A stretch of 64,000 nt of DNA from Deferribacterales bacterium (GCA_050253075.1 JBFWJS010000005.1:115237-179236); one strand, 5' to 3'; positions 44,964 to 64,000 are shown, numbered from the stretch's first letter. Notes: generated from the letters alone by a model not told the origin. Numbers and translations: made by a program.

Positions 44964-46070
44964 TCAGATCACAGGCACGCCGAACCTTTTCGCCACCTCA
45001 GCCTTATCCACATCAAAGCCGAGCTCTATAGCATCTTTTATAACATCCCAGTCGGCCTCCACCTTCATATCCAGTATGAAAGCAGGCACAGGCGCATCGC
45101 CGAAGTTCAGATCGACTATCCATCTAAGCAGTGTCCTCGTAAGCGTCTCCGACAGCGCCCCCGCTATCTTATAGCTCTTTGTCTGCAGTGTCTCGAGATG
45201 CTGCTGAGCCAGAGAATACGAGCCGTTTGTGGATGTGTCGCTGGTGAGTATCTCGCCTGTCACGGCCTTTGATATCTCCGTATTGCATATGTTCACCAGC
45301 TCGGAAAAGTCCGCCGATGTACCCTTTGTCTCCAGCACCTGCACGCTGTCCACATTTGCCAGAGCCACAGCTGCATCTGACTGTATATTATAAAGATTTT
45401 CTGCCAGTTCTTTTGCCCTTGCCCTGCTGTCTGCATCGTCTATGGAGTCAAATAGAGCGAGCACCGTCGGCACGCCGTACTTCTCTGCCACTGTCAGCCA
45501 ATACCTGAACCCCGCCTTTTTAAACATCCACGGCCAGTAGCATTTTGACAGAACGGGTGTGCCGTAGGGGTTCTCATTCTTCGGGCTGTTTCGGTGTACG
45601 ACAAACTTGTACTCCTCCTCCAGAGGTATAGACACGGCGCCGTCCGCCAGTGCCAGCCCGCCGTCGCTTGTGAATGCAAACCTTGAAGGCTTCCGCCCCA
45701 TAGCGTTCACGGGTATCCAAGCCCCTTCTCTCTCTTCCCATATGATCTCTATCACGCTGAAGCCGTATTCCACGGCCATCATCATATCCTGCAGAAGCTG
45801 TTTCACGCCGAGCCCGTTCAGACAATCCTTCACAAATGCGGCTATACCTGCGGATTCGTCGTCCATATCCTTCGCACGCACGTCCCACTTCATGGCAAAG
45901 ACCCTGTCTTTCAGCTGTTCGAGCTTTGCGTGTATGTGGGCATCCTGAAGCATCTCGTCAAAGATGCTCATGTTCACCCCTGTCTTACCGAAAAGCACGT
46001 CTGGGTTTGTCATCATCCCCATAGACGTCACGTCTGTATTCTTTGTCAGCACACTTGTTAATCTGCTCAT
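44964..46070 (-). CDS. phage portal protein, DUF935 / Mu gp29-like
   Basis: DAHIHA, AVEYGFSVIEIIW, NPYG.P.L..CYWPW.FKK, EKYGVP, NTEISKAVTGEILT, HLE; 368 aa. Confidence 0.88.
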   Translation of the reverse strand: MSRLTSVLTKNTDVTSMGMMTNPDVLFGKTGVNMSIFDEMLQDAHIHAKLEQLKDRVFAMKWDVRAKDMDDESAGIAAFVKDCLNGLGVKQLLQDMMMAVEYGFSVIEIIWEEREGAWIPVNAMGRKPSRFAFTSDGGLALADGAVSIPLEEEYKFVVHRNSPKNENPYGTPVLSKCYWPWMFKKAGFRYWLTVAEKYGVPTVLALFDSIDDADSRARAKELAENLYNIQSDAAVALANVDSVQVLETKGTSADFSELVNICNTEISKAVTGEILTSDTSTNGSYSLAQQHLETLQTKSYKIAGALSETLTRTLLRWIVDLNFGDAPVPAFILDMKVEADWDVIKDAIELGFDVDKAEVAKRFGVPVI

Positions 46071-46085
46071 ATCTATCTCCTTTCA

Positions 46086-47486
46086 TTAATATTTTTTGAA
46101 CATATCTCCGCTCTTTCGCCCCGCTCCCGAGAATGACGCCGAAGGCTTCACCCGTCTTTCCGTCTGGCTGAGAGCCTGTGTCATGGCATCCACCATGTCG
46201 TCATTTTTCCCGCCCGGGAATAATGCCGCCTCGTCCATCAGCTCCTCGGAGAACTTTGCCCCCCGTTTCAGATAGACATTCCCCGCCTCGAGCATAGGCG
46301 TGACGGCTATCGCCCTCGCTGTCTTGCTCCCCTGCGGATTCACGGGGATGAGCCCCTGTATCTCATTTTTCAGAGCGGATATCACAGCGGGGCCGTTCGC
46401 CTTATCTTCAATGTATTTAGCACGTGCCTGCGGGTACTTTTCCGTCATCATGCGCAGGGCTCGCAGGGCAGACATAAAGTCCATCCGCCCACGCACCTGA
46501 TCCACAAGGTATCTCTCCGTGCCCCGAATCCCCCACACCTGACCGACCACAAAGTCTGAGCCGTCACCTCCGGAGAATGTCATATCCCACGACTGCACCA
46601 TCTGCTCAAAGGCAGGCTCCGCATCGTAAAAGCGGAACCACGACTTTTTGAAAACTGCTCCGTCCTCGGGGGCTGGTCTCTGCTGATAGAGTGCGTTCCA
46701 AACACGGGAGCCCACTGCGGAGCGTATCTGTGCGAGGGCGTCTTCGTCATATTTCTCAGCCCAGAGCGGTTCACCCACGGTACGGAATGCCTCGTCCTCC
46801 TCTGCTATTGCGGGGAAGCTGACCACCTGCCAGCCGTCTCTGTCGGCATTCAGCAGTCTGCCTGCGAGGTCGTCCTCGTGCCAGCGGGTGAGTATGACGA
46901 CTATCCGTCCCCCCTTCTCTATCCTTGTGTACAGGGTGGACTGATACCAGTCCCACACCTTGTCACGATAGTTCTTGCTGTCGGCGTCCTCCTGATTTTT
47001 AAACGGGTCGTCGATGATGAGCAGGTCGCCCCCCATCCCCGTTATCGAACCGCCAACCCCCGCTGCGACATAGCCGCCGCCGTCTGCGGTCTCCCATCTG
47101 TCTGCTGCCTTTGACCTTCCGCTCAGCCCAGTGCCGAACGTCAGGCGGAATTTTGGATCTGCTACGATATCCCGCACCTTTCTGCCGAAGTTCTCCGCAA
47201 GTCGGGCACTGTATGATGTGGCTATCACCCGCTTTGTCGGGTGTCTGCCCAGAAACCAAGCGGGGAAACGCACGGATGCCAGCTCGCTCTTCCCGTGGCG
47301 CGGGGGCATGAGTATCATCAGCCTGCCGTCAGTCCCTGCCTCCAGCTCGGTGAGCTTATCCGCCAGCAGTCGGTGGTGCCAGTTCGGCTCGTATCCTCTG
47401 TATGTCAGCTTACAGAACGGGATGAGGCTCTCTCGGGCGAGCTTCAGCGCATAAAGTTTTTCAAAGTTTTCACTGCTTAGCTTCAT
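46086..47486 (-). CDS. phage terminase large subunit (ATPase plus RNase H-like nuclease)
   Basis: Walker A MPPRHGKSE, Walker B LIIDDP, TRWHEDDL, ALYQQRP, nuclease SWD...D...IEDKANG...DDMVDA. Confidence 0.93.
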   Translation of the reverse strand: MKLSSENFEKLYALKLARESLIPFCKLTYRGYEPNWHHRLLADKLTELEAGTDGRLMILMPPRHGKSELASVRFPAWFLGRHPTKRVIATSYSARLAENFGRKVRDIVADPKFRLTFGTGLSGRSKAADRWETADGGGYVAAGVGGSITGMGGDLLIIDDPFKNQEDADSKNYRDKVWDWYQSTLYTRIEKGGRIVVILTRWHEDDLAGRLLNADRDGWQVVSFPAIAEEDEAFRTVGEPLWAEKYDEDALAQIRSAVGSRVWNALYQQRPAPEDGAVFKKSWFRFYDAEPAFEQMVQSWDMTFSGGDGSDFVVGQVWGIRGTERYLVDQVRGRMDFMSALRALRMMTEKYPQARAKYIEDKANGPAVISALKNEIQGLIPVNPQGSKTARAIAVTPMLEAGNVYLKRGAKFSEELMDEAALFPGGKNDDMVDAMTQALSQTERRVKPSASFSGAGRKSGDMFKKY

Positions 47487-47919
47487 GCATTATCGCTTTG
47501 GCATCCTCTACGCTCAGGTTATCCAGCTCACTCATAAGGTCGGCTATATTACCGTCAGCAGATTCGTCTTTGAGGAATTCGTCGGGGGATTTGCCTATGC
47601 AGATGTCCTTATAGTTTTTCACTGTTTTCGAATGCAGTTCCACATCACGCAGATTCTCACACTCGTTGAGGAGTACATCCGCCTTTTCCAGCCCTGCCAT
47701 TGTGCTGTTGCATATGGCATCCAGCATCTTCACCCGATGATTTTTCAGCCTTCGGATTGTCTTATCCGTTTCGGGGCGTTTCCATTTTTCGGCATCGGCT
47801 CTGTTCTTCACCGTCTCTGTTTTTATGCCGTATTCCTCTGACAGCTCGGACAGGTCATATACACCGTCCTCGTATTCACTGCGCATGGATGTCCATGTTT
47901 CCTTCGTTATTCTGCCCAT
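47470..47919 (-). CDS. probable terminase small subunit
   Basis: N-terminal HTH-like W..MR.EYE.G...L.EL...YGI..TV..RA..EKW; overlaps the terL start; GGAG RBS. Confidence 0.7.
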   Translation of the reverse strand: MGRITKETWTSMRSEYEDGVYDLSELSEEYGIKTETVKNRADAEKWKRPETDKTIRRLKNHRVKMLDAICNSTMAGLEKADVLLNECENLRDVELHSKTVKNYKDICIGKSPDEFLKDESADGNIADLMSELDNLSVEDAKAIMHEAKQ

Positions 47920-47943
47920 ATGGTTCTCCGTATTTTTTAATCA

Positions 47944-47997
47944 GGATTCTACGCAGAAATTTGAATTAATATGTTTAAACACGATAGACTTAGAAAC
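47944..47997 (-). promoter_or_regulatory. shared late-type promoter motif, copy 1 (packaging operon)
   Basis: Minus strand GTTTC-N14-TTAAACATAT-N16-GTAGAATCC; same spacing as 57792-57845. Confidence 0.7.
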
Positions 47998-48031
47998 ACA
48001 GATCGGTGAAAATTAATACTTTCGTTTTCAA

Positions 48032-49171
48032 ATGAACACAGGTGATATATACTATTTAAAACGAGAGTCAGAGTGTGCCTATATGATCAGAAAAGTTATT
48101 ACAGACGTCTATGAAGACATCCATTTCAGTGATAAATACGACACTGAGCAGATAAACCTGCTGCTGAAAGAACTGGACGTGCGCCATGCGCATTTCTCCG
48201 GGCTGCCTATCGTGCCCGAGGTTCGCAGCTTCCTTAACGGCGAGCTCCGCACACAGTCCATATACTCCACCGCCGCAATCGGAAAGCCCGATATGGAGGA
48301 GGAAGACGTGCGCAATTTCCTCGCAGGGAACCCGCACGAGCTGGACGAGACACGCTCCCGCATAGTGAATAACATCAGGCGCACATTTGAATTCGTCGAT
48401 AAAAACAGAACGACTTTCGAGCTGACCACCGAAAACCTGCGCAAGCTCCACATCATGCTCGTGATAGACACGGCTGAGGGGCTCCCCGGCGTATACAGAT
48501 CTAAGGACCGCTCAGAGGTAAACATAGACTATAAGCCCCCGAGGGGCTCTATGGACGAGCTGACCAAAGAATTCTGCGACTGGTTCGCCAGCTCCGACAT
48601 GCAGAAGCATCACCCTGCCGTTAGGGCGTTTCTCGCTCATTACCACATAGGTATGCTTCAGCCTTTCAGCAACGGCAACGGGCGTGTGGCACGCACTCTG
48701 GAGGCTATCGTGCTGGAGAACGCAGATATGCCGTACCTCACCCATGTGCTGTCTCAATATTATAAAAGAAACAGAAAAGACTATATAAAAGCATATATCA
48801 AAAACGAAAAGACGGGCGGATTCGACATGACGCCGTTCCTCGCATTCTGCCTCGAGGGCTCCGTGCGTGCGTATAAGCTGATAACAGACATGGCTGTCAC
48901 AGGGCTCCGTGCCATCAGCGTGCGTGAATACATCCGCAGACTCAGGACAGAAAAGAAAATCACCGAACGCCAGCGTGACCTGCTGGAGATAATATATCAG
49001 TACGACAAGCCATTCGACCTGCACGACCTGCTCACGAACCCTATATTCGCAGGGCTCTACCGCAGTGTGACAGAAAATACCGCACGCAATGACATAAAGC
49101 GCATGAAAGAACTGAGCCTCGTGACACAGACTCAGGGCGGATATATCTTTAACCGCTTCGTGCTCGGATAG
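48032..49171 (+). CDS. degenerate Fic-domain protein with C-terminal winged HTH (Fic-3)
   Basis: PGVYR, YKPP, motif LQPFSNGNGRVAR, C-terminal ITERQ...TENTARNDIKRM. Confidence 0.85.
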   Translation: MNTGDIYYLKRESECAYMIRKVITDVYEDIHFSDKYDTEQINLLLKELDVRHAHFSGLPIVPEVRSFLNGELRTQSIYSTAAIGKPDMEEEDVRNFLAGNPHELDETRSRIVNNIRRTFEFVDKNRTTFELTTENLRKLHIMLVIDTAEGLPGVYRSKDRSEVNIDYKPPRGSMDELTKEFCDWFASSDMQKHHPAVRAFLAHYHIGMLQPFSNGNGRVARTLEAIVLENADMPYLTHVLSQYYKRNRKDYIKAYIKNEKTGGFDMTPFLAFCLEGSVRAYKLITDMAVTGLRAISVREYIRRLRTEKKITERQRDLLEIIYQYDKPFDLHDLLTNPIFAGLYRSVTENTARNDIKRMKELSLVTQTQGGYIFNRFVLG

Positions 49172-50068
49172 GTGCTTATGTATCTGTGCTTCGACATAGG
49201 CGGGACAAACATCAAATCCTGTCTGACAGACGAAAACGGCAAATGCCTCGATAAGATATCTATACACACACCGAAGGATTACGGCGATATCCTCTCGATA
49301 CTCATATCCTCTGCCGAACGTATAAGCGACTTCAAAGCCTGTGCTGTAGCCGTACCGGGGACATGCTCGCCTTCATCGGGCGAGGTGCTCTTTGCTCCGA
49401 ACCTGACAGCACTGAACGGCAGAAATATCAAGAACGACCTCGAAAAGGCTCTGAACAAGCCGGTATTCATAGAAAACGATGCAAACCTCGCCGCTCTAGG
49501 CGAATACTACTTCATTGAGAAAGATAAGGTGAAGAACATGATATTCCTCACCATAGGCACAGGGCTCGGAGGCGGAGCAGTGCTGAACGGAGAACTGCTC
49601 ACATCAGACATCTCCCTCTTTGAAGCGGGGCACATAAACCTCATCCCCGACGGACGCCTCTGCGGATGCGGTAAAAAGGGATGCCTCGAAACATACGCCA
49701 GCATCGGCGGGATAATGAAGACATATAAAGAACTCTCCGCAAGGGGTGAGGCAGACAATGTGAACCAGATATACACCGCTGCCAAAAACGGCGACAGGGC
49801 AGCACAGCTCACCTTTGAAGTTTTCGGCGGACAGCTCGGCATAGGCATGGCTAGCCTCGTGAACATACTGGTCCCGCAGAAGATAAAGATAGGCGGAGGC
49901 ATATCCGAGATGGCAGACGCCTTCCTCCATCACACCATGAAGATCTTTTCGAAAAACATATATCCCGCTTATAAACAACGTGTTTCCATAGAGCTCTCCG
50001 CTTTGAAAAACGAGGCAGGGCTCAAAGGGTGCACAGCCCTCTCCATCACTAATCTTTCGTCAAAATAA
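49172..50068 (+). CDS. ROK-family sugar kinase (glucokinase-like)
   Basis: DIGGT, ENDANLAALGE, TIGTGLGGG, EAGH, CGCGKKGCLE. Confidence 0.92.
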   Translation: MLMYLCFDIGGTNIKSCLTDENGKCLDKISIHTPKDYGDILSILISSAERISDFKACAVAVPGTCSPSSGEVLFAPNLTALNGRNIKNDLEKALNKPVFIENDANLAALGEYYFIEKDKVKNMIFLTIGTGLGGGAVLNGELLTSDISLFEAGHINLIPDGRLCGCGKKGCLETYASIGGIMKTYKELSARGEADNVNQIYTAAKNGDRAAQLTFEVFGGQLGIGMASLVNILVPQKIKIGGGISEMADAFLHHTMKIFSKNIYPAYKQRVSIELSALKNEAGLKGCTALSITNLSSK

Positions 50069-50117
50069 ACCTTGTGTTTTCCGCTCTATATGAAATATTA
50101 TCCCTACGGAGCACAAA

Positions 50118-50930
50118 TTGGAAAAGCGACTTATCACAGGCATCACACCTACGAAATGCCTTAACTGGCTATACAGAAAGAACCCCGAAGTTTATGTCTA
50201 TCCACCCGCCGTTGCGGATGTCGACGGAGAGTATTATCAGCTGAACAGCTTCGAACATTACTCTCAGGAGTACTTCATCATCGAGGCAGACAGTGTGGAA
50301 GATGCGCTGAACATATCCGTAGACCTCTACGGAGCAGCCAGCCTGAACACCACAGAGCTGGCTTACCTTACCGCTGTGTGCGATAGACAGGAACTGGATA
50401 AGTCAAAGATAACAGCATACGAAACCCACGGCATAAAGGGGAAGAAAAACTTTGAAACCCTGAAGGCCATCACATTCATGTGCCCGTCGCTGCAGAAATA
50501 CATCTCGGTGAAAGCTATCCCGCTGAAGACCATAGCCGTCTTCGACAAGCTCGAGAAGGATTTCCGCAGGTTTGTGAAAAACACTATCGACGACAGAGAG
50601 CTATCCGTGCAGGATTTCCGTAAGATGGTGAATCTGCTGTTTGACATGCAGTCGAGCGCAACTCCGGAAGACATGGGCCCCGACCTGCTCAAAAAACTGG
50701 CCGAAAAGAAAGATATGACACGCATCAGCTTTATGAAGGAGATGCAAAACCTCACTAAGGGTTTGAGTGCAAACGTCTTTTCAGAAAACAACTTTGAAAC
50801 GGGCGAGCTGACATTCAGCATAAAGGCATCAGGGATGAAAGAGCTGAAAGAAAAACTGGAAGCTCTGTCAGAAGACGAAAATAAAATAGAAAGAATATAC
50901 AGGTTTTTGGATGAGCAGGATATTTGTTGA
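50118..50930 (+). CDS. hypothetical protein, possibly a degenerate ParB-like partner of the radical SAM gene
   Basis: Long ORF with a GGAG RBS that overlaps the next gene; C-terminal NFETGELTFSI pattern; no certain family. Confidence 0.6.
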   Translation: MEKRLITGITPTKCLNWLYRKNPEVYVYPPAVADVDGEYYQLNSFEHYSQEYFIIEADSVEDALNISVDLYGAASLNTTELAYLTAVCDRQELDKSKITAYETHGIKGKKNFETLKAITFMCPSLQKYISVKAIPLKTIAVFDKLEKDFRRFVKNTIDDRELSVQDFRKMVNLLFDMQSSATPEDMGPDLLKKLAEKKDMTRISFMKEMQNLTKGLSANVFSENNFETGELTFSIKASGMKELKEKLEALSEDENKIERIYRFLDEQDIC

Positions 50931-51990: not shown

Positions 51991-52011
51991 GAAAGATAAA
52001 TAAGGTCACAT

Positions 52012-52036
52012 ATCCTTCGCATCTGCTCAGGATGAC
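52012..52036. repeat. half copy of the GTCAT...ATGAC repeat
   Basis: atccttcgcatctgctcaggatgac resembles the right arm of the 32209 copy. Confidence 0.55.
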
Positions 52037-52110
52037 CCGGCGAGCATTACATTTCCCCTTTTATTAAAAGCGGAATCTGCTTATAATATGCCCGTTTCGA
52101 TGGAGGAATA

Positions 52111-53301: not shown

Positions 53302-53308
53302 TCATAAC

Positions 53309-53647
53309 ATGCGCTTCCTATTTATTTTAATTGCTCTGGCATGCTTAATGCCTAGCCAAGCCCCCGCACAGGAGAATATCCGCGGGATATTCTTTGAAAA
53401 CGATTCACCGCACATGCTCGGCGTACGCCTTATCAACAGATACAGCAGAGTGGAGGATCACTATCTTTTCGACCCGAACAGCAAAGAGCACGTGGACACA
53501 AAGGTCGAAACATTCACACTCTCTGCACAGCTGATAACACCCAGCTATCAGATAGACTGCTGTGAATGGACACAGATACACAGCGGCGACACCGTCACCA
53601 TAGAGTATCTGCCCGACCGCGACAGATGCTGGTGTAAGATAAAATAA
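53309..53647 (+). CDS. small exported hypothetical protein
   Basis: Signal peptide MRFLFILIALACLMPSQAPA; OB-fold-like GDTVTIEY. Confidence 0.65.
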   Translation: MRFLFILIALACLMPSQAPAQENIRGIFFENDSPHMLGVRLINRYSRVEDHYLFDPNSKEHVDTKVETFTLSAQLITPSYQIDCCEWTQIHSGDTVTIEYLPDRDRCWCKIK

Positions 53648-53899
53648 TCAGTCTATATTCATACAGCTCCGCTCCTGAAGGAACTCCTCAAGGCTCTTTT
53701 TCGGCACACGCCATCTGCCGTTTCCGTCTATGCTGGTGTTCCATGCGATGAGCTTTGCGCTTTTTATCCATCTGCGTACCGTGATGTGACTGACCTGAAG
53801 TATCTTCGCCACCTGATATATGGTCAGGTTGCTCCCGGGCATTGATTCCACCTGTCTGCTTATACTATCCTCATTCCATACTTTGCACGGAGCCGACAT
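53648..53899 (-). CDS. HTH_17 / excisionase-type (MerR-like) DNA-binding protein
   Basis: LTIYQVAKILQVSHITVRRWIKSAKLIA...GRWRVPKKSLEEFL; GGAGG RBS before the ATG at 53899. Confidence 0.85.
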   Translation of the reverse strand: MSAPCKVWNEDSISRQVESMPGSNLTIYQVAKILQVSHITVRRWIKSAKLIAWNTSIDGNGRWRVPKKSLEEFLQERSCMNID

Positions 53900-53915
53900 A
53901 CCGCACCTCCAAATA

Positions 53916-54011: not shown

Positions 54012-54371
54012 ATGGGTGTAGGACACAGATTAAAAGAGCTCCGCAGAGAGCTGAAGATCAGTCAGAAAGAACTAGGAAATCTGCTGAATGTCGCACAGCA
54101 GGTGGTCAGTTATTATGAAAAAAGCGGTAATATAGATGCGTCAAAACTGTCCATCATCTCTGAAAAATACAGCATAGATATCAGATACTTCTTCGAAGAC
54201 AAACCTTTAAACTCTTACAGAGGCACAAACCTTCAGCTTAATTCCTCTTCAGACTTTATAATCCCCGCCGGATGGGACGACATACTCCATGAAATGGCGG
54301 AGATAGAATACGGCAAGGTGCGGATAATAGAATCTGTTGTCAGAACATTGATTAAAGAATTTAAGAATTAA
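54012..54371 (+). CDS. XRE-family (cI-like) repressor
   Basis: GHRLKELRRELKISQKELGNLLNVAQQVVSYYEKS HTH. No SD, so possibly leaderless. No S24 autopeptidase domain. Confidence 0.88.
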   Translation: MGVGHRLKELRRELKISQKELGNLLNVAQQVVSYYEKSGNIDASKLSIISEKYSIDIRYFFEDKPLNSYRGTNLQLNSSSDFIIPAGWDDILHEMAEIEYGKVRIIESVVRTLIKEFKN

Positions 54372-54404: not shown

Positions 54405-56513
54405 ATGGATATTAGCGGCGAAAACGCCCCATTTATTTTACGTTTTTCTAAATACATGTATCGAACAAACCCGAGAATAACAAGAGGAGGACCGCCCAGA
54501 ACAGCCTAAGGCCAGCCTCTGAATATAGATAAAGCCGTAGCAGGCATACGAAATGCGCATACAGCATACTGCCGTTTCGACTTTAATAAAGACCTCCCAC
54601 TTTACTCACTGCTGACCTTGAAAAAAGGCTCACTCTCAAAGTCGAACAGATACCACTTCCTGAAAACCGCAGATATAAAGCTGACGGGCAGTTTGTCCCC
54701 TGAGGACCTCATCTTTGCGCTAAAGGACGATGCAGATATCTCCAGATTTGAAAACATACTGCGCTACAGTCGAAACATAAACTTCCGAAAGTCTCTGACC
54801 CATATGTCAGACATAAGAGCCCTACTGCCGGAGGATAAGCTGAAAAACTCAGTTACCGAAGGCGACATAGTAATCCAGCTGTTTAATAACGACAACTACG
54901 GCAAACTACTCCACTTTCTCAGAGACGGGCTGAATATAAGAGCAGGCGACATCTTTTCCGTAGGCAGTCTGAACATCATAAAAGCAAATATAAACGACCT
55001 GTCTAAGCTGGAAACTCTAGCATCACACTCTCTGATAAGGTCTGTGGAAAGCGCTCACAGCATCCATCTGGAAGAGCATTATATAAGGCACGCTCCGCTG
55101 CCGCTGAACTGTGTGAAAGAACGAGCCCTTCAAAAAGCATATCCCAAGGCCGCCCTGATAGACTCAGGCGTGGCATCTGACTCCCTGCTGAAAGAGTGGG
55201 AGATATCCACGGAAAGCTACATCCCTGATGAAAAGCGAAATCCAGCCCACGGCACTTTTGTCTGCGGGCGAATGCTTCAGGAAGGGGAAGAGTTCGGCGG
55301 GATACTGTACCTGAACGCTGAAATGATGCCTTCGGACGGAATTTTATCCATCAGCGATTTCTACAGAAACATGACAGACATCCTGCAGAAATACTCAAAG
55401 ACCATAAAAGTTTATAACATCTCCATGGGTACATCTGCTCTGCTCCGAGACGAATTTTCCTACTCCGCATACATACTGGACACACTGCAGAAGGAATATG
55501 ACGTGCTCTTCATAATATCCGCAGGCAACTGTGCACCTGACGGGGAGGCTCCGAGGTCACTCACTGCACCTGCCGAAAGCGTACACTCCGTCAGCGTCGG
55601 TTCCGTGGCGCACACAGACACAAATATCCAGAAGAAGCACACCCCATCCCTTTTCACAAGGCACGGCCCGGCACCGCTCGGATTCATAAAGCCCGACATC
55701 GCCGCATACGGAGGGGCTCATGCTGAGCATTTCGGCAGGCTGAAACCTGTGGGAGTATTCAGCATCGGCGTGCAGAACGAGCTGGCAGAAGACATCGGAA
55801 CCTCCCACGCCGTCCCTATGGTCACATCAAAAGCGGCAAAGCTGTATCACCAATACAGCCATGCATTTAAAAGCCCCGACATAACAAAAACATTGCTGAT
55901 ACACGATGCATTCCTAAAAAAAAGCTCCAAAGAGCCCGACATATACTGCGGATACGGCATATCTGCCGATGGAGACAATGACGAAAACCATGTAACATAC
56001 ATCCATCAGGGGCTGGTAAAGCCTGAGCAGATAGTAGAACTGCCCGAGATACCTATCCCACCCGATATGATAAAGGACGGAGCCGTCTATGGAGGCATCG
56101 TCCTGACACTTGTTTATAAGACACACGTGGACATAGCTTTCCCTCATTACTACTGCATGACAATGCTGGATATATCACTCGGGTATTACGACGGGGGGAA
56201 GTGGATATCTGTGATGACGGCGAAAGATACGGCGGGGCTCCCCAAAGGAAAAGATGCACAGGAGCTCTTTAAATGGCAGCCTGTAAAAGTGTTCAGCAGG
56301 GTATTTAAAAATAAGAAAATGCCCGACAAGCTATTACTAAGAATAATACCGTCTAAAAGAGATTTTTATGACAAAATGGAAGACATTTCATACTCATTCG
56401 CTATATCTTTTGTGAGCAAAGAGGAAAACCTGTTGAAAGGTATTCTCGACAGACCGTCTGATTTTTCACACATTCTCGAATCTGCCCATGACTTGTGGAA
56501 AACATGTGGATAA
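54405..56513 (+). pseudogene. IetS-like S8 (subtilisin-like) serine peptidase with an in-frame TAA at 54507-54509
   Basis: Triad IDSGV / HGTFV / GTSHAVP and oxyanion SAGN are intact in the 54618-56513 ORF. The same frame extends to the ATG at 54405 (MDISGENAPFILRFSKYMYRTNPRITRGGPPRTA*GQPLNIDKAVAG...) with only one stop. Confidence 0.6.
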
Positions 56514-56692: not shown

Positions 56693-56752
56693 GTTTCGAC
56701 AAAACTGTTCATTTTTTGACCATTAAAAAAAATCATATTTTAACGGTAAAAA

Positions 56753-57706
56753 TCACCACAATCTGAGCTTTGTACCTTTTTCGTAATTTTGTATGTCGTA
56801 TCTGAAATCTTCTTTCTGAACCAGATCCTGTGTCTGAGCTATTGCTTCGTCCAATACCTTTATTGCGTTTTCAAAATCGTCGGTCTCGGCATATGCCGCA
56901 GCCATCACTTCCGCATAGTGGACAACGTTCAGGTCATAGAGTTCTTTTGCTATCTTTACGGCTTTTTCGCCGTTTCTGTATGATTCCAGAGGGTTTGTGG
57001 AATATACCCATGCGAGCATGCGCTTCGCCTCGAGGTTCGTCTTGTCTATTTTAATGGCCTTTTCAAGGTCGTTAACGGCCTGATTTGCGTCTTTCTGCTT
57101 ATAGAACACCTTCGCCCTGAGCAGATAAAGATCAGAGTTTTCAGGGGATTTCTGCATGGCTTTCAGGGTGTATGTCTTTGCCTCGTCATACTTGCCCATG
57201 TTGAATAACAGATCGCCCATAGCAACGAGGAAATCTGCGCTCTCTCCGCCCCATCTCTCGGCACCTTTGAGGTCCTTTGCCGCCTCTGCATAGTCGCCCA
57301 TGGCCACATGTGCTTTTGCTCTCTCCACATATGCCACAGGGTATTTCTTCCCTGCTTTATCTATGACGGTTCTGAAATCTATCACCGCATCCTTATAAAA
57401 GCTGAGTTTCACGTATGCACGTCCCCTTTTCAGGTGATATTTAGCATCGCCGTGGTTTCTGATGGCTTTTGTATAGTTGTTTACAGCCTCGCCGTATCTG
57501 CCGAATGCGTAGTCTATATCCGCAAGTCCTTCATAGTAATAATCCGAATGAACAGACTTCGTAACATTCTTTTCATAATTCTGAACCGCTTCTTCGTATG
57601 TCGGCGCTTTCAGCGCAGCATCGAGCCCCGCCGTATACTCTTCCTGATTAACAGTACAGCCGGCAGTCATAAGAACAAGCGAAAACAAAGCAATCAAAAC
57701 TCTCAT
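56753..57706 (-). CDS. TPR-repeat lipoprotein
   Basis: Lipobox MTAGC, several TPRs, C-terminal LAWVYST.P..YRNG..A motif; GAGG RBS before the ATG at 57706. Confidence 0.85.
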   Translation of the reverse strand: MRVLIALFSLVLMTAGCTVNQEEYTAGLDAALKAPTYEEAVQNYEKNVTKSVHSDYYYEGLADIDYAFGRYGEAVNNYTKAIRNHGDAKYHLKRGRAYVKLSFYKDAVIDFRTVIDKAGKKYPVAYVERAKAHVAMGDYAEAAKDLKGAERWGGESADFLVAMGDLLFNMGKYDEAKTYTLKAMQKSPENSDLYLLRAKVFYKQKDANQAVNDLEKAIKIDKTNLEAKRMLAWVYSTNPLESYRNGEKAVKIAKELYDLNVVHYAEVMAAAYAETDDFENAIKVLDEAIAQTQDLVQKEDFRYDIQNYEKGTKLRLW

Positions 57707-57791
57707 CAAAGCACCTCTCTGGTCGTGTCTAAGTGAATACAATACCTTTTATTAGATTCCATTGAAAGAGTAAAGTTCAGCCCCCACAGCC

Positions 57792-57845
57792 GTTTCAGGT
57801 TTAACCGCCCTTAAACATATCCATTATTTCATTCCTGTACCATCC
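57792..57845 (+). promoter_or_regulatory. shared late-type promoter motif, copy 2 (head/tail operon)
   Basis: GTTTC-N14-TTAAACATAT-N16-GTACCATCC; same architecture as 47997-47944. Confidence 0.7.
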
Positions 57846-57875
57846 ACTCACTTGAAAAACTCTAAAGGAGGAAAC

Positions 57876-58568
57876 ATGAAACTGGAACTGGCGAAAACCG
57901 GAAACCATAACGGCATCACCATAACAGAAGAAGACCTGAGAGACATGGCAGCGACCTTTACAGGCGATGTGCCCGTCACAATAGGTCACGAGGCCGACGA
58001 CTCCATGCCCGCATACGGCTGGGTCACCGCTCTAGAAGTGTCCGAAGACGGACAGACACTCACAGGCGAACTGGAGCTGAACGAAGAGCTCCAGCAGGCT
58101 ATCGCAGAGGGACGTTACAAGAACTGGAGCATAGGCGCAGGCAGAAACGCAGACGAGCAGATGTATCTGCACCATGTGGCGTTCCTCGGCGCTGTCCCCC
58201 CGATGATAAAGGGGCTGAAGCTCATCGAGATGGGCGACAGGTCAGACATCGTCACATTCGCCATAAACGGCGGATGCTCACTCACCCTCTCCGATGCGGA
58301 GCTCTCCGAATACGCATCACTGCGTAAGGAAAAGAAGAGCGCACTCATCAAAAAGCTCTCCGACGCATCAGCGGGGAAGATCCCCTTCGGCAAGCGTGAG
58401 GAGCTCATCAGATTCGCAGACTCTCAGCTCTCCGCAGGCGGCGAAGAGATAGTCTCCATGCTGGCGGAGATATTCGAAAGCGTGAAACACCCAGTGAGAG
58501 AAGGGATATCCCAAGCCATCAGAACAAAAAACGCTGAAACGTCCGTAAACGTATTCAGCAAAATCTAG
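57876..58568 (+). CDS. Mu gpI-like head maturation protease / short scaffold
   Basis: PVTIGH...PAYGWV...GRYKNWSI...YLHHVAFLGAVPP.IKGL; AAGGAGG RBS. Confidence 0.82.
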   Translation: MKLELAKTGNHNGITITEEDLRDMAATFTGDVPVTIGHEADDSMPAYGWVTALEVSEDGQTLTGELELNEELQQAIAEGRYKNWSIGAGRNADEQMYLHHVAFLGAVPPMIKGLKLIEMGDRSDIVTFAINGGCSLTLSDAELSEYASLRKEKKSALIKKLSDASAGKIPFGKREELIRFADSQLSAGGEEIVSMLAEIFESVKHPVREGISQAIRTKNAETSVNVFSKI

Positions 58569-58577
58569 GAGGAATAA

Positions 58578-58940
58578 ATGGCAACAGTAAACGGCGTTAT
58601 CGGTCAGCAGACCATCACAGACAAATCTGTCATCGACGACAGACACCCCGCAGTGATCCGCTTTATGCAGTTCAAAGCAGACAACGGCATCATCGGAGCA
58701 GGCGAGATACTCGCACTGGATTCTAACGGCGACGTGGTCTCATACGACCCTGCATCAGGCGGAACAGAGGCATCACCTATCGGCGTGTGCTCATCACAGA
58801 CAGACACGGCGAAAGATACCGCAGGCGGAGTCATCATCCATGGAACAGTAGTAGGCGCAAGCCTTCTCACCCTCGGCGTAAAAGCTGTCTCCGCAGAGAT
58901 AGAAGCCCTCGAGGCAAACACACTCATCTGGTCATTCTAG
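58578..58940 (+). CDS. head decoration protein
   Basis: 120 aa between protease and capsid genes; AGEILA...PIGV...VIIHGTV pattern. Confidence 0.7.
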   Translation: MATVNGVIGQQTITDKSVIDDRHPAVIRFMQFKADNGIIGAGEILALDSNGDVVSYDPASGGTEASPIGVCSSQTDTAKDTAGGVIIHGTVVGASLLTLGVKAVSAEIEALEANTLIWSF

Positions 58941-58952
58941 GAGGATACATAA

Positions 58953-59936
58953 ATGATACAGCTTGATCTCAGCAGATATTTCACAACAGACTCACTCATC
59001 AAAGCACTCACAAACATGCCGGAGCTTAAATCCCCCGTCATGGACAGCATCTACACGGCGGACAAACGCAGAAACCACCCTCTGCCGACAGTCTCCGTCA
59101 GCGACCTCCAACAGGCGGTTAAGAACATAGCTATCACAAAAAGAGGCGGAGAACCTGTGCCTGTCTATGAAGAAAGCATGAACATCACACACATCGAACC
59201 TCAGCCGTTCAGACCTTCCGAAAGACTCAACGGAGTGGACGTGAATAACCTCAAGCTCCTCGACGAGACAGGCGTGGAGCTCCTCGTAAATAACAAGATA
59301 GACAGACTCCGCCGCATCGTCAGAGCATCCACAGAGGCTATGGCGGCACAGTCGCTCACAGGCTCTATCGCATACCCTATGGCTATGGACGGCGGATACG
59401 GCACATACAGCGTGGACTTCGGCTCCACACTCAGCCACTCCGTCGGCACTGCATGGACAGACTCGGGCATCACACTCGACGCCGTCCTCGCAGACCTCAT
59501 CAGCATGGAGGCAAACATCCAGGCTGAGACACACTACGGCTCCGACATCCGCTTCTGGGCGGGTCAGGACGCCTTCATGGCTCTGGCAAAGATCGTCCAG
59601 GACGTCAACAACACAGGCATCACGGGCATGATAGACGCAAGAACCATCAACATAGCAGGATTCAGGGTAGAGCTTCAGAACAGCTCATACACAGACCTCG
59701 CCACAGGCTCGCAGACAAAGGTCGTGGATACTTCAAAGGTGATGGCGTTCGCCGCCGATGCACCTTTCGAGCTGGTCTACTCTGTCATAGACGACCTCGA
59801 CAGCAACCTTACTGCCATGCCTTTCTTCGTAAAGAGCGTGAAAGACCCGAGGTCCTCAAGCATCGAGATCATCGCAGAGAGCAAACCGCTCCCTGTTCCG
59901 TTCACAAAGGGTATTTGCTGGGCAACAGCCGTATAA
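58953..59936 (+). CDS. major capsid protein (lambda gpE-like family)
   Basis: 327 aa; RG...P, LRRIV..TEAMAAQSLTG, VDFG, C-terminal ESKPLPVP. Confidence 0.82.
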   Translation: MIQLDLSRYFTTDSLIKALTNMPELKSPVMDSIYTADKRRNHPLPTVSVSDLQQAVKNIAITKRGGEPVPVYEESMNITHIEPQPFRPSERLNGVDVNNLKLLDETGVELLVNNKIDRLRRIVRASTEAMAAQSLTGSIAYPMAMDGGYGTYSVDFGSTLSHSVGTAWTDSGITLDAVLADLISMEANIQAETHYGSDIRFWAGQDAFMALAKIVQDVNNTGITGMIDARTINIAGFRVELQNSSYTDLATGSQTKVVDTSKVMAFAADAPFELVYSVIDDLDSNLTAMPFFVKSVKDPRSSSIEIIAESKPLPVPFTKGICWATAV

Positions 59937-59952
59937 GGCTCGACTCAAAAAT

Positions 59953-59981
59953 CGGCAGGGGTGCTCTGATGCGCCCCGCCG
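59953..59981. other. GC-rich hairpin after the capsid gene
   Basis: CGGC(A)GGGGTGC / GCGCCCCGCCG stem with no U tract on the plus strand. Confidence 0.45.
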
Positions 59982-60002
59982 CCCTATCAAAAGAGGTAAA
60001 CC

Positions 60003-60359
60003 ATGCTGATAGACATATATGAGCTTCAGGAAATGATACAGACAGAGGACTACGACGCCATATGCCGTGGTGACGATGCCGTTGCGGAAGAATCACTGGA
60101 ATCTGCCCGTGCGTATGTAGGACTGGCCGCTGAGAAATTCGGCATTGAATACGACGAGGAAGACCCAGCCATAAGGCTCGCCGTGAAAAAGTGGGCTCTG
60201 GCGCAGATGTACATCTTCGCAGCGGAGTGGGAAACAGCCCAAAGGTATAAGGACGAATGCAACGAAGTGCTCGCACCACTTGCCCCCGCATCCGAACAGG
60301 GGGGAAGAGTCTACTCTTCGACCGTTTCGGGGAGCACCTCGTGGAAAGGATATTACTGA
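60003..60359 (+). CDS. head-tail connector, Mu gp36/DUF1320-like
   Basis: 118-aa helical protein right after the capsid gene; A..YV...A..LY...RY pattern. Confidence 0.62.
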   Translation: MLIDIYELQEMIQTEDYDAICRGDDAVAEESLESARAYVGLAAEKFGIEYDEEDPAIRLAVKKWALAQMYIFAAEWETAQRYKDECNEVLAPLAPASEQGGRVYSSTVSGSTSWKGYY

Positions 60360-60730
60360 TGAAGACAGCTCAGGAGATAAAGCAGGCGATAGCCGACTCG
60401 CTGAATACCTGCGGCGTGTTCGACTCTGTGCTGACACCGTCCGACAACCGAAAGGATGCGACCATAATGCGTGAGCCGTCTGCTGCGGTCTATTACAGCG
60501 GATGCGTGATAAGGGACGATAACGGCGTGCAGGTGACAGAATACGCATACATCATACGCATGAAGTTCCTGAAAATAGGCGTAAACGAAACAGCCGACGA
60601 CATAGAACTCGCCGTTAACGCCCTGAAAGAGCTGGAGCCCGCATCCCTCGCCCAGTCGGGCAAAACAGACACAAACAGCAGATCGGCATCATACACCATA
60701 GACATAACATTTGCGGGGTGCAGGGGATGA
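60359..60730 (+). CDS. probable tail completion/terminator protein (gp37-like)
   Basis: TGATG-coupled start MKTAQEIKQAIADSL; PSAAVYYSG; position in the operon. Confidence 0.55.
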   Translation: MKTAQEIKQAIADSLNTCGVFDSVLTPSDNRKDATIMREPSAAVYYSGCVIRDDNGVQVTEYAYIIRMKFLKIGVNETADDIELAVNALKELEPASLAQSGKTDTNSRSASYTIDITFAGCRG

Positions 60731-61095
60731 TACGCATATCAGACATAACACTCCCAAAGTCCGCAGTGTGGGCAAACGAGATATCAAACAGCACACATAA
60801 AACCGAGCGGACAGCATGCCCCTACGGGACAGAAGTCATCTTTGCAGACATACAGGATGCTGAGATAGACATATACATACCAAAGATATCTGGCGAGCTG
60901 ACCCGTGCGGACGTGCAGAGGCTGAAAGCTCTAGCAGACGGCACAAACGAGATAAGCATAAACATAAACGGCACAGACAAAACGTGCGTCTTCAGGCATT
61001 CGGACACCGCACTCGACCTGCACCCGATAAGCCCGAAACAGACACAAACGCACACCGACAGCTACTACGGATATATAAGGCTTCTGGAGGTTTAA
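60727..61095 (+). CDS. tail-tip (distal-tail-like) protein of Mu-like siphophage type
   Basis: ATGA-coupled start MIRISDITLPKSAVWANE...TRADVQRLKALAD...VFRH...IRLLEV. Confidence 0.55.
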   Translation: MIRISDITLPKSAVWANEISNSTHKTERTACPYGTEVIFADIQDAEIDIYIPKISGELTRADVQRLKALADGTNEISININGTDKTCVFRHSDTALDLHPISPKQTQTHTDSYYGYIRLLEV

Positions 61096-62064
61096 ATGAA
61101 TCAGACAGACATAAAAATACTGAAAGCAGAAACGATAACAGACGACAGCATAAACGGCGGGAGGGTCAGCTTCGCCTCTGAGGTGATCAGCGGAGTGAAG
61201 TTTAACCTGTTCCCCAGAGTGACATCATCCGAAAGGGACAGTGGAGTGACAAGATACCGTAAGGCCTTCATCGGCAACATGAACCCGCTGGGCGAGACGG
61301 CATACGGCGCATCTGTCGCCATCAGTACCCCCGGCAACGGCGAAGACAGGTTCTATATAAAGCAGGGAACACACTCAGACACACAGGACGACCTGACATC
61401 GGACGGATGGACAGGATGCGGAACGCTGGCATACACGGCATCCGCTGGGGACACATCCATACAGGTAATTTTTAAATCCAGCGACTACGCCATCCCCGAG
61501 GGCGCTATGCTCATAATCAAAGATGATCTGGAAAACACCGTGAACATACGCACATCGGCATCGGCACCGTGCGCAGAGTGGAACGGCACAACGGCGACAA
61601 TACAGCTCGAATCCCAGCTCCCAGACGGATTCTCTTCATACAGCACACACGTGGGCGTGATGATAGAAACGGGCGACCTAGCTCCTGAGATGACTGACAT
61701 ATCGGTATCATCCTCATCAGGCACATTCGACGAGAGCATCGTAACCCTCTATAACGGCGGAACAATAGCGGACACATACTCAGTCACATTCGACAGTGCA
61801 TTCAGCTTTGCCGTGTCGGGTGCGGAAACAGGCGCACTGGCATCGGGCACCACAGGCTCCGCATATGAGCCGTCTAACCCGCAGACAAACAAACCTTATT
61901 TCAGCATACCTTCTGAAAGCTGGTCGGGGATATTCGAAGCTGGCGACACTGTGACATTCACCACTGCGCCTTCGTGTGCTGGCTTCTGGATAAAAGAGGC
62001 TGTCCCCGCAGGGTGCGCACACGAGCCGAACAACAGCTTCAATCTGGACTGGATGATAGATTAG
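61096..62064 (+). CDS. phage tail/baseplate structural protein
   Basis: N-terminus DIKILKAETITDD...GGR...EVISGVKFNLFPRV...ER..G...RKAF resembles tail proteins of transposable siphophages as I recall them. Confidence 0.65.
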   Translation: MNQTDIKILKAETITDDSINGGRVSFASEVISGVKFNLFPRVTSSERDSGVTRYRKAFIGNMNPLGETAYGASVAISTPGNGEDRFYIKQGTHSDTQDDLTSDGWTGCGTLAYTASAGDTSIQVIFKSSDYAIPEGAMLIIKDDLENTVNIRTSASAPCAEWNGTTATIQLESQLPDGFSSYSTHVGVMIETGDLAPEMTDISVSSSSGTFDESIVTLYNGGTIADTYSVTFDSAFSFAVSGAETGALASGTTGSAYEPSNPQTNKPYFSIPSESWSGIFEAGDTVTFTTAPSCAGFWIKEAVPAGCAHEPNNSFNLDWMID

Positions 62065-62071
62065 GTGACAC

Positions 62072-63301
62072 ATGGCTAACCTTACATACGCGAATTTCGC
62101 ACTATCAAAGCTGACACAGGCACTCTCTGCATCGGGCACAGCCGTACACATAGCAGACGACGCCCTCTTCCCCGACGGATACTTCACCGCCGTGATATGG
62201 AGCGCAGGGGTCGGCTCACCTCTGGAGGATGCAGACAGCGAGCTGCTGACGCTGATGCGCACATCCGCAGGAGTTTTCGAAGCGGTGCGGGGAGATGAAG
62301 GGACAACTGCCCGTGACTGGGCGCAGGATTCCCTGATAGCAAACGTGGTGACGGCGGAAACTATGGAATACATATACTCCGCAGCTGGGAACACGGCATC
62401 CGTCACCGTGATGTCCGACACCGCATACACCATGGAAAGGGACGACACAAAGATGCTGTGTACATTCACCCCCGCAGAGGGGGAAAAGTCTGTCACCCTC
62501 CCCGCATCGGATGTGTGTGAAGGGCTGACATATACGATACTCAACAGAGGCATATATCCGCATCAGACACTAAAGCTATATCCGAACGCATCCGACGGAT
62601 ATGCACATACTGCCGAAGGATACATAAGCATACCTTCGGGCGGGTCTGCACAGCTTATACACAGCGATGACGGATGGGTCGTCATATCAGCAAACGCCGA
62701 CAGCTACAAAAACCTGCGCATAATAGACGAAGACATGCCGAGCGTATCATTCGGCGAGGGCACACTGTATGCAGACACATCGGCAGAGGATATAAACATC
62801 ACCCTCCCCTCGGCAAAGGAATACTGCGGTGTCCCCCTCAAGATATATAAATTCTCCGACGACGCAAACAAGGTGATCATCAGCGGATACGAAGGGGACA
62901 GCACCCCCGTAGAGCTGACGGAGCAGTGGCAGTCCGCCGTGTTTGTCATGAGCCAGAGCGGGACAGTATATATGACAGACGGTCCGCAGGCTTCAGCACC
63001 TTCATCAGGGACATCCGAGGGGGACGTGATCTTCCTGTCTGAAAACAGGTTCCTCGACGGCAGCGAACGCTTCATCTTCGTGACGACAGGGTCAGTGGGG
63101 ATACACTCATACCTGCCCGAGCCGAGCGCACACACGGGAAAGATGGTAACGGTGAAGAAGATAGACTCTGGCTCAGGCGTTGCCATCATCTTCCCCATAG
63201 ACAGCACAATAGACGGTGCAGCAGACTTGGTGGAGCTCACACAGCAGTGGCAGTACGCCACATTTGCCTGCGGCGGAGACGGCTGGTACAGGGTAGGCTG
63301 A
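62072..63301 (+). CDS. tail fibre / receptor-binding-like protein with three internal repeats
   Basis: N-terminal ANFA.S.L...FP...VRGDEGTTARDW anchor; three TLP/YLP...G...W domains. Confidence 0.62.
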   Translation: MANLTYANFALSKLTQALSASGTAVHIADDALFPDGYFTAVIWSAGVGSPLEDADSELLTLMRTSAGVFEAVRGDEGTTARDWAQDSLIANVVTAETMEYIYSAAGNTASVTVMSDTAYTMERDDTKMLCTFTPAEGEKSVTLPASDVCEGLTYTILNRGIYPHQTLKLYPNASDGYAHTAEGYISIPSGGSAQLIHSDDGWVVISANADSYKNLRIIDEDMPSVSFGEGTLYADTSAEDINITLPSAKEYCGVPLKIYKFSDDANKVIISGYEGDSTPVELTEQWQSAVFVMSQSGTVYMTDGPQASAPSSGTSEGDVIFLSENRFLDGSERFIFVTTGSVGIHSYLPEPSAHTGKMVTVKKIDSGSGVAIIFPIDSTIDGAADLVELTQQWQYATFACGGDGWYRVG

Positions 63302-63302
63302 T

Positions 63303-64000
63303 ATGTTTATACAATGCGGAGCACCGCTTTTAAACATATCTCTGTCCTCACAGTCAGGGCTGAACGGCAGTCTGAGCATCACAGCCCCCTTTGTGATAGA
63401 CGGCAGTGTGGAGCTTGCCTCCGCACTGTCCATTTCGGACAGCCTGAACCTGCCTATACCGGAGGGGCTGAACGGCGAGCTGTTGATATACGCACTCTTT
63501 GCCGAGGTATACAGAGGCTCGGATAATATCCCCGTCAGTCTGTCTGCTATGGATGAAGCCACTGTCGCCTGTAATACGGTGAACGCACTCGCCCTTGATG
63601 GAGCCGTATCTATATCCTCAGAGCTGGCAGAAGCCTTTGAGGGCAGTCTGACATCCTTAAACACCATAGGCGAGTATGCACTCAGAGCATCAACTGACAT
63701 CAGGATACCGTTCGGGCTGTATGACACATCAGGAAGCTGTGAAATACGCCTTCCCCAAACCACAGCCCACGTCATAAAGGACGAGCTGGAAGTATATGCA
63801 GACGGCATCGACATCACAAAGCTGTTAAGGAGCGCAGAGATAAAACTCTTCGGCGGAAATGAACCGATCAGGCTGAAAGCATTGCTGAAACCTCTGAAAA
63901 ATACGCCGAAGTACATCGACATCTTCATCAACGGTGAGGCATACGCCTTCCGCATTGATACGGCGGAGCATTCCTCTGAGCAGTGCACCCTGACTGGCAG
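63303..64000 (+). CDS. further phage tail-region protein (partial; runs off the right edge)
   Basis: ATG 63303 immediately after the previous stop (MFIQCGAPLLNISLSSQSG...); the frame appears open to the window end. Confidence 0.55.
   Translation, partial: MFIQCGAPLLNISLSSQSGLNGSLSITAPFVIDGSVELASALSISDSLNLPIPEGLNGELLIYALFAEVYRGSDNIPVSLSAMDEATVACNTVNALALDGAVSISSELAEAFEGSLTSLNTIGEYALRASTDIRIPFGLYDTSGSCEIRLPQTTAHVIKDELEVYADGIDITKLLRSAEIKLFGGNEPIRLKALLKPLKNTPKYIDIFINGEAYAFRIDTAEHSSEQCTLTG

Follow-up and report, generated by a model that had tools for sequence, protein, structure and literature searches.

The 64,000-nt stretch of DNA from a Deferribacterales bacterium that is analysed here (GCA_050253075.1, JBFWJS010000005.1:115237-179236; called the window in the following, with positions counted from its first letter and its genome denoted G000) carries phage-derived genes in two operons, one of ca 3 kb for DNA packaging on the minus strand and one of ca 12 kb for the head and tail tip on the plus strand, with ordinary genes around and between them. 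We will argue that these operons probably constitute a phage-derived particle system that has been owned by the host since the common ancestor of its family, that is, a domesticated and vertically inherited element, most likely a new gene transfer agent (GTA). The comparisons were made with 16 genomes of one Deferribacteres family and with 52 other genomes of the phylum. The family consists of four genera, namely Denitrovibrio (g1, the genus of the window), g2, what is probably Geovibrio (g3), and g4, within which Seleniivibrio falls.

Both operons lie where the sequence-only reading, an earlier interpretation of this DNA that made no use of databases, had put them, as is seen from the list of open reading frames (ORFs) and from the family scans. 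In the minus-strand operon, the probable small terminase subunit TerS (149 aa, 47470..47919) has weak matches to PHROG families called 'terminase small subunit' (phrog_2606, E = 3.8e-5; phrog_1206, 5e-5), and its position is kept in 16/16 family genomes at 30-67% identity. The terS stop codon overlaps the start of terL, which encodes the large terminase subunit (466 aa, 46086..47486; Terminase_6N 1.5e-18, Terminase_6C 8.3e-16, phrog_38 4.3e-131). The nearest TerL proteins of cultured phages are 40-48% identical to it, and among the structural proteins it is the only one that was named by an NCBIfam model. The portal protein (368 aa, 44964..46070) is of the Mu gp29 type, matching Pfam Portal_Mu at 1.8e-86 over residues 35-365 and phrog_113 at 7.1e-80, and its ORF is uninterrupted in all 16 genomes of the family.

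The plus-strand operon comprises 16 genes and extends ca 6 kb beyond the end of the window, to ca 69958 in window-equivalent coordinates, just 5' of glnB-amtB. The head maturation protease with a short scaffold part (230 aa, 57876..58568) starts at an ATG behind AAGGAGG and matches phrog_976 at 6.3e-29, covering positions 31-198 of the 415 in that profile. The head decoration protein follows (120 aa, 58578..58940; phrog_49 2e-5, while the Pfam HDPD value of 0.0038 is below the cut-off of that family), and then the major capsid protein of the lambda-E type (327 aa, 58953..59936; Phage_cap_E 7.2e-59). A comparison of the capsid protein with cultured phages gave no match at 1e-10, and at 1e-3 only matches of 23-25% identity. 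Tightly coupled ORFs run on 3' of the capsid gene.

The ordinary genes around and between the two modules encode, as already recognised in the sequence-only reading, Smc, a rhodanese, a Fic protein, a ROK kinase, an SPL-like radical-SAM protein, FtsY and a tetratricopeptide repeat (TPR) protein. There are in addition a 270-aa protein without assignment, a secreted 131-aa protein, and an S8 peptidase (54618-56513) between the XRE and TPR genes that had been left out of that list. The same reading had seen no integrase, transposase or replication gene and no att repeat. Scans with Pfam, PHROGs and NCBIfam likewise gave no match to integrase, transposase or replication families in either module, and neither a flanking direct repeat of the att type nor a tRNA was found around them.

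It is important to note that the two operons have a promoter motif in common. Ahead of the packaging operon it occupies 47946..47978 on the minus strand, where TTAAACATAT is followed after 16 nt by GTAGAAT; it begins 59 nt ahead of the terS ATG and has a position weight matrix (PWM) score of 30.4. Ahead of the head and tail operon it occupies 57811..57843 on the plus strand, with TTAAACATAT, 16 nt and GTACCAT, a start 65 nt upstream of the protease ATG and a PWM score of 32.4. That a promoter motif is shared had been proposed from the window alone, and the proposal holds at 22/22 sites, that is, in front of terS and of the protease gene in the 11 genomes of g1 and g4. These sites all read TTA(A/C/T)ACATAT, 16 nt (17 in two of the terS sites), (G/T)TAnnAT, and the motif begins 53-74 nt ahead of the ATG. 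When the weight matrix was run over the genome, the two operon sites alone scored above 23. The next-best site, at 22.7, was rejected, because an unrelated gene on the opposite strand has its start codon there. A motif match on contig C4 was also rejected, as it lies between two convergent genes. With a loose form of the pattern, 24 sites are obtained in the 11 g1 and g4 genomes, 19 of them at the two promoters, compared to 5 for a reversed control pattern. The motif of the head operon is furthermore present once per 21-kb locus in 8/8 related loci, always at the place of the protease promoter.

The loose g1/g4 pattern has zero sites in the genomes of g2 and g3. In g3, both operons instead carry YACACNNNRTAACAA, followed after 17-21 nt by TATATTYC, with 7 matches in 4 genomes and none elsewhere, the pattern having been derived from these same sites. 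An 18-nt near-copy of the g1 promoter word with its 5' flank, at 63323-63340 in the start of the 546-aa tail gene, was considered as well and discarded, since it has no -10 box and is conserved in no relative. A scan with the sigma-70 consensus picked up neither operon promoter, and the -35 region does not resemble that of sigma-70 promoters. The motif could thus be read by an activator or by an alternative sigma factor.

The element is found throughout the family. The capsid gene is present in 16/16 family genomes, once in each apart from two distant extra copies, and the protein is 86-88% identical within the genus of the window, 79-80% to g4, 63-64% to g3 and 61% to g2. TerL is likewise present in all 16, with identities of 78-82% within the genus, 66-70% to g4, 58-59% to g3 and 60% to g2. 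The 52 other genomes of the phylum gave a single capsid match, of 39% identity, which is the level of the unrelated Mu-like prophage described below.

The two modules are separate in all four genera. In the four genomes of g1 they are ca 11.5 kb apart on opposite strands, and the gene order is identical in the complete, single-contig genome G002. In g4 (7/7 genomes) they are on different contigs, the packaging operon being followed by the Fic and ROK genes, and the head operon being preceded by the run from ftsY to the TPR gene. In g3 and g2 the modules face the same way at a distance of 30-37 kb in the four genomes that have both on one contig, while in G009 they are on different contigs. The gap between them in G007 holds ffh, rimM, trmD, rplS, rplM, rpsI, lon, two hsp20 genes, glnB-amtB and a cheW cluster. 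The neighbourhood of smc and ftsY, when the window (40932-53301) is compared with G007 and G004, has been rearranged several times between genera, and within g4 the packaging operon adjoins smc in just 2/7 genomes.

The sequence-only reading had itself named findings that would speak against it, among them misassembled junctions, modules that are missing or differently placed in close relatives, and dN/dS near 1, and it had proposed a comparison with the species tree. Each of its tests that can be made by computation turned out in its favour. Misassembly is excluded, because the same junctions are present in the single-contig G002 and because contigs from the source sample bridge rhodanese to portal, terS to Fic and TPR to protease at an even depth of 16-19, which is that of the host genes. 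As to synteny, all 16 family genomes contain the modules in syntenic or near-syntenic positions.

The genes are also well preserved. When seven genes were followed through the 16 genomes, 111/112 ORFs were uninterrupted, across lineages with no more than 48% identity between their Smc proteins and in agreement with the earlier observation of intact structural ORFs in the window; the corresponding count for smc, used as control, is 15/16. The ratio of nonsynonymous to synonymous substitution rates (dN/dS) was obtained by the Nei-Gojobori method from the three pairs in which dS is unsaturated. For the seven element genes it is 0.012-0.144, far below 1 and at the level of smc, for which it is 0.020-0.036. 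The element genes are thus under purifying selection. The G+C content at third codon positions (GC3) of the element genes tracks that of smc in each host, from 0.38 to 0.65. The total G+C of the modules is raised by 4-6 points, and recent import was considered as the cause and rejected, since the GC3 equals that of the host.

The trees point in the same direction. A combined TerL, portal and capsid tree and an smc tree, the latter as host reference, were quick IQ-TREE reconstructions with Shimodaira-Hasegawa-like approximate likelihood ratio test (SH-aLRT) support. Every branch that is well supported in both is common to the two, and the head genes taken separately give the groupings of the smc tree wherever the latter is supported, also within g3. 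Vertical maintenance, as had been proposed from the window, is thus borne out by the presence in all family genomes, the congruent trees, the low dN/dS and the host-like GC3.

These results bear on the possibility that the element is a live mobile one, a temperate phage or a satellite, which is present in all the genomes through repeated infection. Its proteins do have many viral relatives, one packaging module has been exchanged within g3 (see below), and IMG/VR files a contig of the locus as viral. That contig, L082, is a 15.9-kb metagenome contig of this same locus and was the only result of an IMG/VR scan with the capsid alignment. In its best segment it agrees with the capsid gene at 100%, and it breaks off within this gene; it is the host locus misread as a virus. 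A live element is further contradicted by the single copies in conserved neighbourhoods, the agreement with the host tree, the separation of the modules by core genes, the lack of integrase, transposase and replication genes in the scans, the host-adapted GC3 and a sequencing depth equal to that of host genes. We therefore consider this possibility extremely improbable.

A useful internal contrast is offered by a Mu-like myovirus prophage in the same genome, on contig C1 at ca 586000-622000 (L043-L045). It is complete and looks intact, and its genes are contiguous and co-oriented, which is what the sequence-only reading had expected of real Mu-like prophages. They encode an rve transposase, a MuB-like ATPase, GemA, an amidase, gp27, TerL (523 aa), portal (503 aa), Mu F, a protease/scaffold protein (293 aa), decoration and capsid proteins, gp36, sheath, a tape measure of 802 aa, baseplate J and I proteins and a fibre. 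The Mu F protein of this prophage is fused to a PBECR2 nuclease domain. The portal, protease, decoration and capsid proteins of the element are 28-38% identical to their prophage counterparts (protease 38%, decoration 30%). The element portal has 368 residues versus 503, and the protease 230 versus 293, so that the compactness of the two proteins, suspected from the window, is confirmed. A BLAST comparison of the element TerL with the prophage TerL gave no match.

The label 'Mu-like' that had been attached to the element applies to the portal and the tail-tip proteins and does not extend to TerL. The element resembles the Mu-like transposable siphophages JBD30 and RS138 and the resident prophage in its portal family, in the protease, decoration and capsid proteins that are 30-38% identical to those of the prophage, in counterparts of RS138 ORF47 and ORF48, and in the fold of a JBD30 baseplate protein. 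It differs from them in that no transposase, MuB, Mu F, gp27, major tail protein or tape measure was found in it, in the lineage of its TerL, and in being neither contiguous nor mobile. A Mu-like transposable prophage is recognised by a DDE transposase (MuA), the MuB ATPase, and a contiguous late operon with gp27, Mu F, tail tube and tape measure; all of these are present on C1, and none of them was found in the element.

Downstream of the capsid gene the proteins are more difficult to name. A 118-aa protein (60003..60359, plus strand, as for all genes of this operon) has no family match and is presumed from its position after the capsid gene to be a head-completion or adaptor protein; its ORF is uninterrupted in 16/16 family genomes. 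The next gene encodes a presumed connector, also without family match, of ca 123 aa when read from an internal ATG (60359..60730; the listed ORF starts at 60257), and its g4 orthologues have 117-119 aa and align from residue 35. A 125-aa protein follows (60718..61095; phrog_4408 2.9e-8), the C-terminal half of which is 33% identical to ORF47 of Ralstonia phage RS138. In the proposed layout of the operon these three count as small connector proteins.

The best-conserved tail protein is one of 322 aa (61096..62064), of tail-tip or distal-tail type. Its family is large, unnamed and for the most part viral, and counts 1765 cluster representatives. In RS138 the N- and C-terminal regions of ORF48 (1213 aa) correspond to this protein, and ORF47 and ORF48 are the two genes directly after the RS138 tape measure. 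The AlphaFold2 model obtained with an alignment of 110 sequences has a predicted local distance difference test score (pLDDT) of 97.5, compared to 42 with 6 sequences. Its central barrel resembles the tail tip domain of phage Chi (Z 10.7, root-mean-square deviation (rmsd) 1.8, 82 residues aligned), a baseplate chain of JBD30 (Z 10.3, rmsd 3.8, 105 aligned) and the T5 Dit protein (Z 8.6). The informative matches are at domain level only, since whole-model Foldseek matches were weak, with template modelling (TM) scores of at most 0.25. A BFVD search gave two full-length matches, neither of them named, a cluster look-up gave no names, and profile searches of three tail proteins against solved structures gave nothing under E = 0.28. 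The JBD30 distal tail protein is described in PMC11445458 as having tube-like sandwich domains that are decorated by oligonucleotide/oligosaccharide-binding (OB) domains.

The remaining tail genes begin with that of a presumed fibre or accessory tail protein of 409 aa (62072..63301), in which a conserved N-terminal domain is combined with three copies of a repeated beta domain. The g2 and g3 forms of this protein have a single repeat and 218-230 aa and are encoded between the 118-aa and 125-aa genes, so that both copy number and position have changed. Next is a tail protein of 546 aa, which is cut by the window end and has its first 232 codons at 63303..64000; it has no match among cultured phages, and the Atlas look-alikes are viral. 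Outside the window the operon continues with genes for proteins of 165, 241, 334, 341, 404, 104 and 78 aa. The 404-aa protein is a right-handed beta-helix, that is, a fibre or spike, and the 78-aa product of the last gene, taken to be a small membrane protein, has one hydrophobic helix. Orthologues of the 118, 125, 322, 546, 165, 241 and 334-aa proteins are present in 5/5 other genomes examined and in 8/8 related loci. In the fibre, ca 50 N-terminal residues are kept at 58-62% identity across lineages, while the C-termini, of 312-699 aa, are unrelated. Taken together, the tail genes suggest that a short tail tip would be mounted on the connector without a tube.

Between the two modules lie three genes that may or may not belong to the system. 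The sequence-only reading had noted a regulatory switch here, and a divergent pair is indeed present. It consists of an excisionase-type DNA-binding protein with an HTH_17 domain (83 aa, 53648..53899, minus strand; HTH_17 1.6e-12) and an XRE-family regulator (119 aa, 54012..54371, plus strand; HTH_3 5.1e-9), whose true starts leave an AT-rich gap of 112 nt. The HTH_17 gene is single-copy in 16/16 family genomes, with 47-92% identity, and the XRE gene is beside it and divergent from it in each. The third gene encodes an IetS-like S8 peptidase (631 aa, 54618..56513, plus strand; PADLOC IetS 7.2e-91, phrog_3964 4.1e-80), which is found in 16/16 family genomes and in 0/52 of the others. This peptidase is not assigned to the IetAS systems. 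It matches IetS profiles over nearly full length; however, its score with the NCBIfam model IteS is 216 bits, far under the cut-off of 900 bits, no IetA ATPase adjoins it (the upstream neighbour is the XRE gene of 119 aa and the downstream one the TPR gene), and it is conserved family-wide next to the HTH_17/XRE pair.

The three genes are adjacent to one another in the six genomes examined, which cover all four genera. They adjoin the head operon in g1 and g4 and are ca 42 kb from terL in g2 and g3. Since the operon promoter motif was not found ahead of the HTH_17, XRE or S8 peptidase genes, and in view of the latter distance, their membership in the particle system is uncertain. On the other side of the peptidase gene is that of the TPR protein (329 aa, 56753..57742, minus strand; TPR families). 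In each of the 12 distinct genomes examined, this gene and the protease gene are divergent. The two are side by side in G000, G002, G004, G007, G013 and G015 and in 8/8 related loci, and the TPR gene is either a part of the system or its ancestral neighbour.

We have also considered that the particle may have been put to another use, such as DNA release for a biofilm matrix, a decoy for phages, or delivery of a protein cargo. An IetS-like peptidase and an HTH/XRE pair with the same family-only distribution, beside the head operon in two genera, would be in line with such a role. However, no recognisable cargo or effector gene was found by the family scans in either operon, and the full packaging machinery is conserved, so that this alternative appears quite unlikely.

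Some further observations concern the neighbouring genes. There are three Fic-domain paralogues in the window (14807-16015, 37430-38518 and 48032-49171), the last of which adjoins terS and matches the SoFic defence profile at 1.8e-33. The secreted protein with a signal peptide (131-aa ORF, 53252-53647) follows ftsY here. A homologue follows the portal gene in g2 and g3, which indicates that it may have travelled with the packaging module.

Several results weigh against the interpretation as a working GTA. The sole exception among the 112 ORFs is an in-frame TGA in terL of G001, a genome that also has a stop in the S8 peptidase gene. In the table of related loci, 11 cells have a stop inside the tblastn alignment, 7 of them in queries that carry a non-coding leader; four structural-gene cells have such an internal stop, and at least one of these is an overrun artefact, the ORF having been found whole elsewhere. 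In G002, an insertion sequence (IS) with a 466-aa DDE transposase (L026:7487-9013) splits the 241-aa tail gene into residues 1-197 and 196-241, and both the fibre (404 aa) and its 104-aa neighbour gene are missing. No match to endolysin, tail tube, tape measure or sheath was obtained in either module with Pfam, PHROGs or NCBIfam. Finally, the packaging tree rejects the pair of G009 and G011 that is supported by the host tree, with p = 0.005 in the approximately unbiased (AU) test, the clade having been chosen after seeing the data. Between these two genomes (L061 and L059, respectively) the dS of the packaging genes is 1.6-2.4, compared to 0.24-0.43 for the head genes and 0.45 for smc. The excess in dS and the rejected sisterhood indicate that one packaging module has been swapped within g3.

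Some of these points would also be expected if the element were a decaying, functionless prophage remnant that owes its conservation solely to chance or to linkage with core genes nearby, namely the IS and the fibre loss in G002, the terL stop in G001, and the tube, tape measure and lysis genes that were not found. Neutral decay would, however, have erased the ORFs, the low dN/dS and the promoters. The ORFs are intact, with the one exception, across lineages with distant Smc proteins, and dN/dS is 0.01-0.14. In 11 genomes both operons retain the dedicated promoter motif, which has been replaced in g3 by another that is again common to both. A remnant is hence very unlikely.

More serious consideration is required for a defective particle of the PBSX kind, in which DNA-filled particles would kill or disturb competitors, or serve in altruistic lysis, without productive delivery of DNA. 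The gene content and the conservation fit this as well as they fit a GTA. A fibre with a conserved 50-aa N-terminus and unrelated C-termini is what one would expect for strain-specific targeting, and the lack of a tube or tape measure in the family scans makes DNA delivery less certain. Against it, purifying selection on the terminase, portal and TerS genes is as strong as that on the head genes, which indicates that DNA packaging itself has been kept, while a purely killing particle needs no DNA. There is also no lysis cassette in the operons, unlike in PBSX. Our assessment is that this alternative is unlikely.

The interpretation that we favour, with moderate confidence, is thus still that of a GTA. 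The features of this class are seen in the element as follows. Head, packaging and tail genes of phage origin are located on the chromosome, they are inherited vertically under purifying selection, and both operons carry one dedicated promoter motif, which makes them, from the sequence, candidates for co-regulation in a host regulon. No replication, integration or transposition genes were found in the element and its parts are scattered, so that neither packaging nor propagation of the element as one unit is possible. What the particles package would then be host DNA, which would be delivered to related cells.

A more specific proposal can be made tentatively, and we regard it as plausible rather than probable. 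The element would be a functional GTA of independent origin, the first in Deferribacterota, derived from a siphophage with a Mu-type portal that lost its tube and tape measure. It would have a distal-tail-like ring and tip directly on the connector, and its two unlinked operons would depend on a lineage-specific promoter that has been turned over between genera. The HTH_17/XRE pair and the IetS-like peptidase could be the switch. Under the favoured interpretation as such, both operons would on induction fire from the one dedicated promoter type, and small heads would assemble on the Mu-type portal with the help of the short scaffold. TerS and TerL would next fill the heads with host DNA through the portal by a headful mechanism, a mode of packaging that we take to be suggested by the Terminase_6 family. 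A short, tube-less tip complex with a lineage-specific fibre, whose C-terminus is swappable, would be added. The cell would finally release the particles, and related cells would take up the DNA.

It is instructive to compare the element with known systems. RcGTA (Rhodogtaviriformidae) is similar in being a set of head, packaging and tail genes of phage origin, ca 15 kb in size, that lacks genes for replication and integration. It is likewise passed on vertically under purifying selection, is controlled as a host regulon and is spread over more than one locus. RcGTA uses portal and capsid families of the HK97 type, whereas the element has a portal of the Mu type (PF06074, Portal_Mu) and a capsid of the lambda-E type (PF03864, Phage_cap_E), so that by homology of head and packaging genes it falls outside the RcGTA-like group and no common descent is detectable. 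The element differs further in that no tail tube or tape measure was found in it, in its host phylum, and in the separation of the packaging genes from the head genes.

Brachyspira VSH-1 (BhGTA) and Bartonella BaGTA likewise go back to tailed phages that were domesticated independently and now form DNA-packaging particles owned by the host; they differ from the element in ancestry and hosts. According to Table 2 of PMC9953437, the RcGTA, VSH-1 and BaGTA types are separate viriform families, and three GTA families are formally classified there.

The PBSX of Bacillus is also a chromosomal, non-propagating, phage-like particle system that is kept by the host and has an XRE-type repressor nearby. 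It forms one contiguous cluster with a contractile tail and lysis genes of its own, while the element consists of two operons in which no sheath, tube, tape measure or endolysin was found. The element is not a tailocin either, since capsid, portal and terminase are present and conserved, and neither sheath nor tube was found.

In a literature search, mostly of titles and abstracts, no GTA or phage-like particle was found to be described for Deferribacter, Denitrovibrio or Geovibrio, in accord with the sequence-only reading, which knew of no described GTA in this lineage. To our knowledge only a handful of independent GTAs are known, and each of them has changed the thinking on phage domestication and on host-controlled gene flow. 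The present case illustrates how a domesticated particle system can be told apart from a prophage by comparative genomics alone, with a Mu-like prophage in the same genome as control. It also provides a clean regulatory handle, as the 10-bp promoter element is found at exactly two operons in each genome; induction, reporters and a search for the regulator thereby become feasible. If the favoured interpretation is correct, the element would add a GTA in a deep-branching and little-studied phylum of anaerobic respirers, and one of unusual build, in which the packaging operon is separate from the head operon and the tail tip has neither tube nor tape measure.

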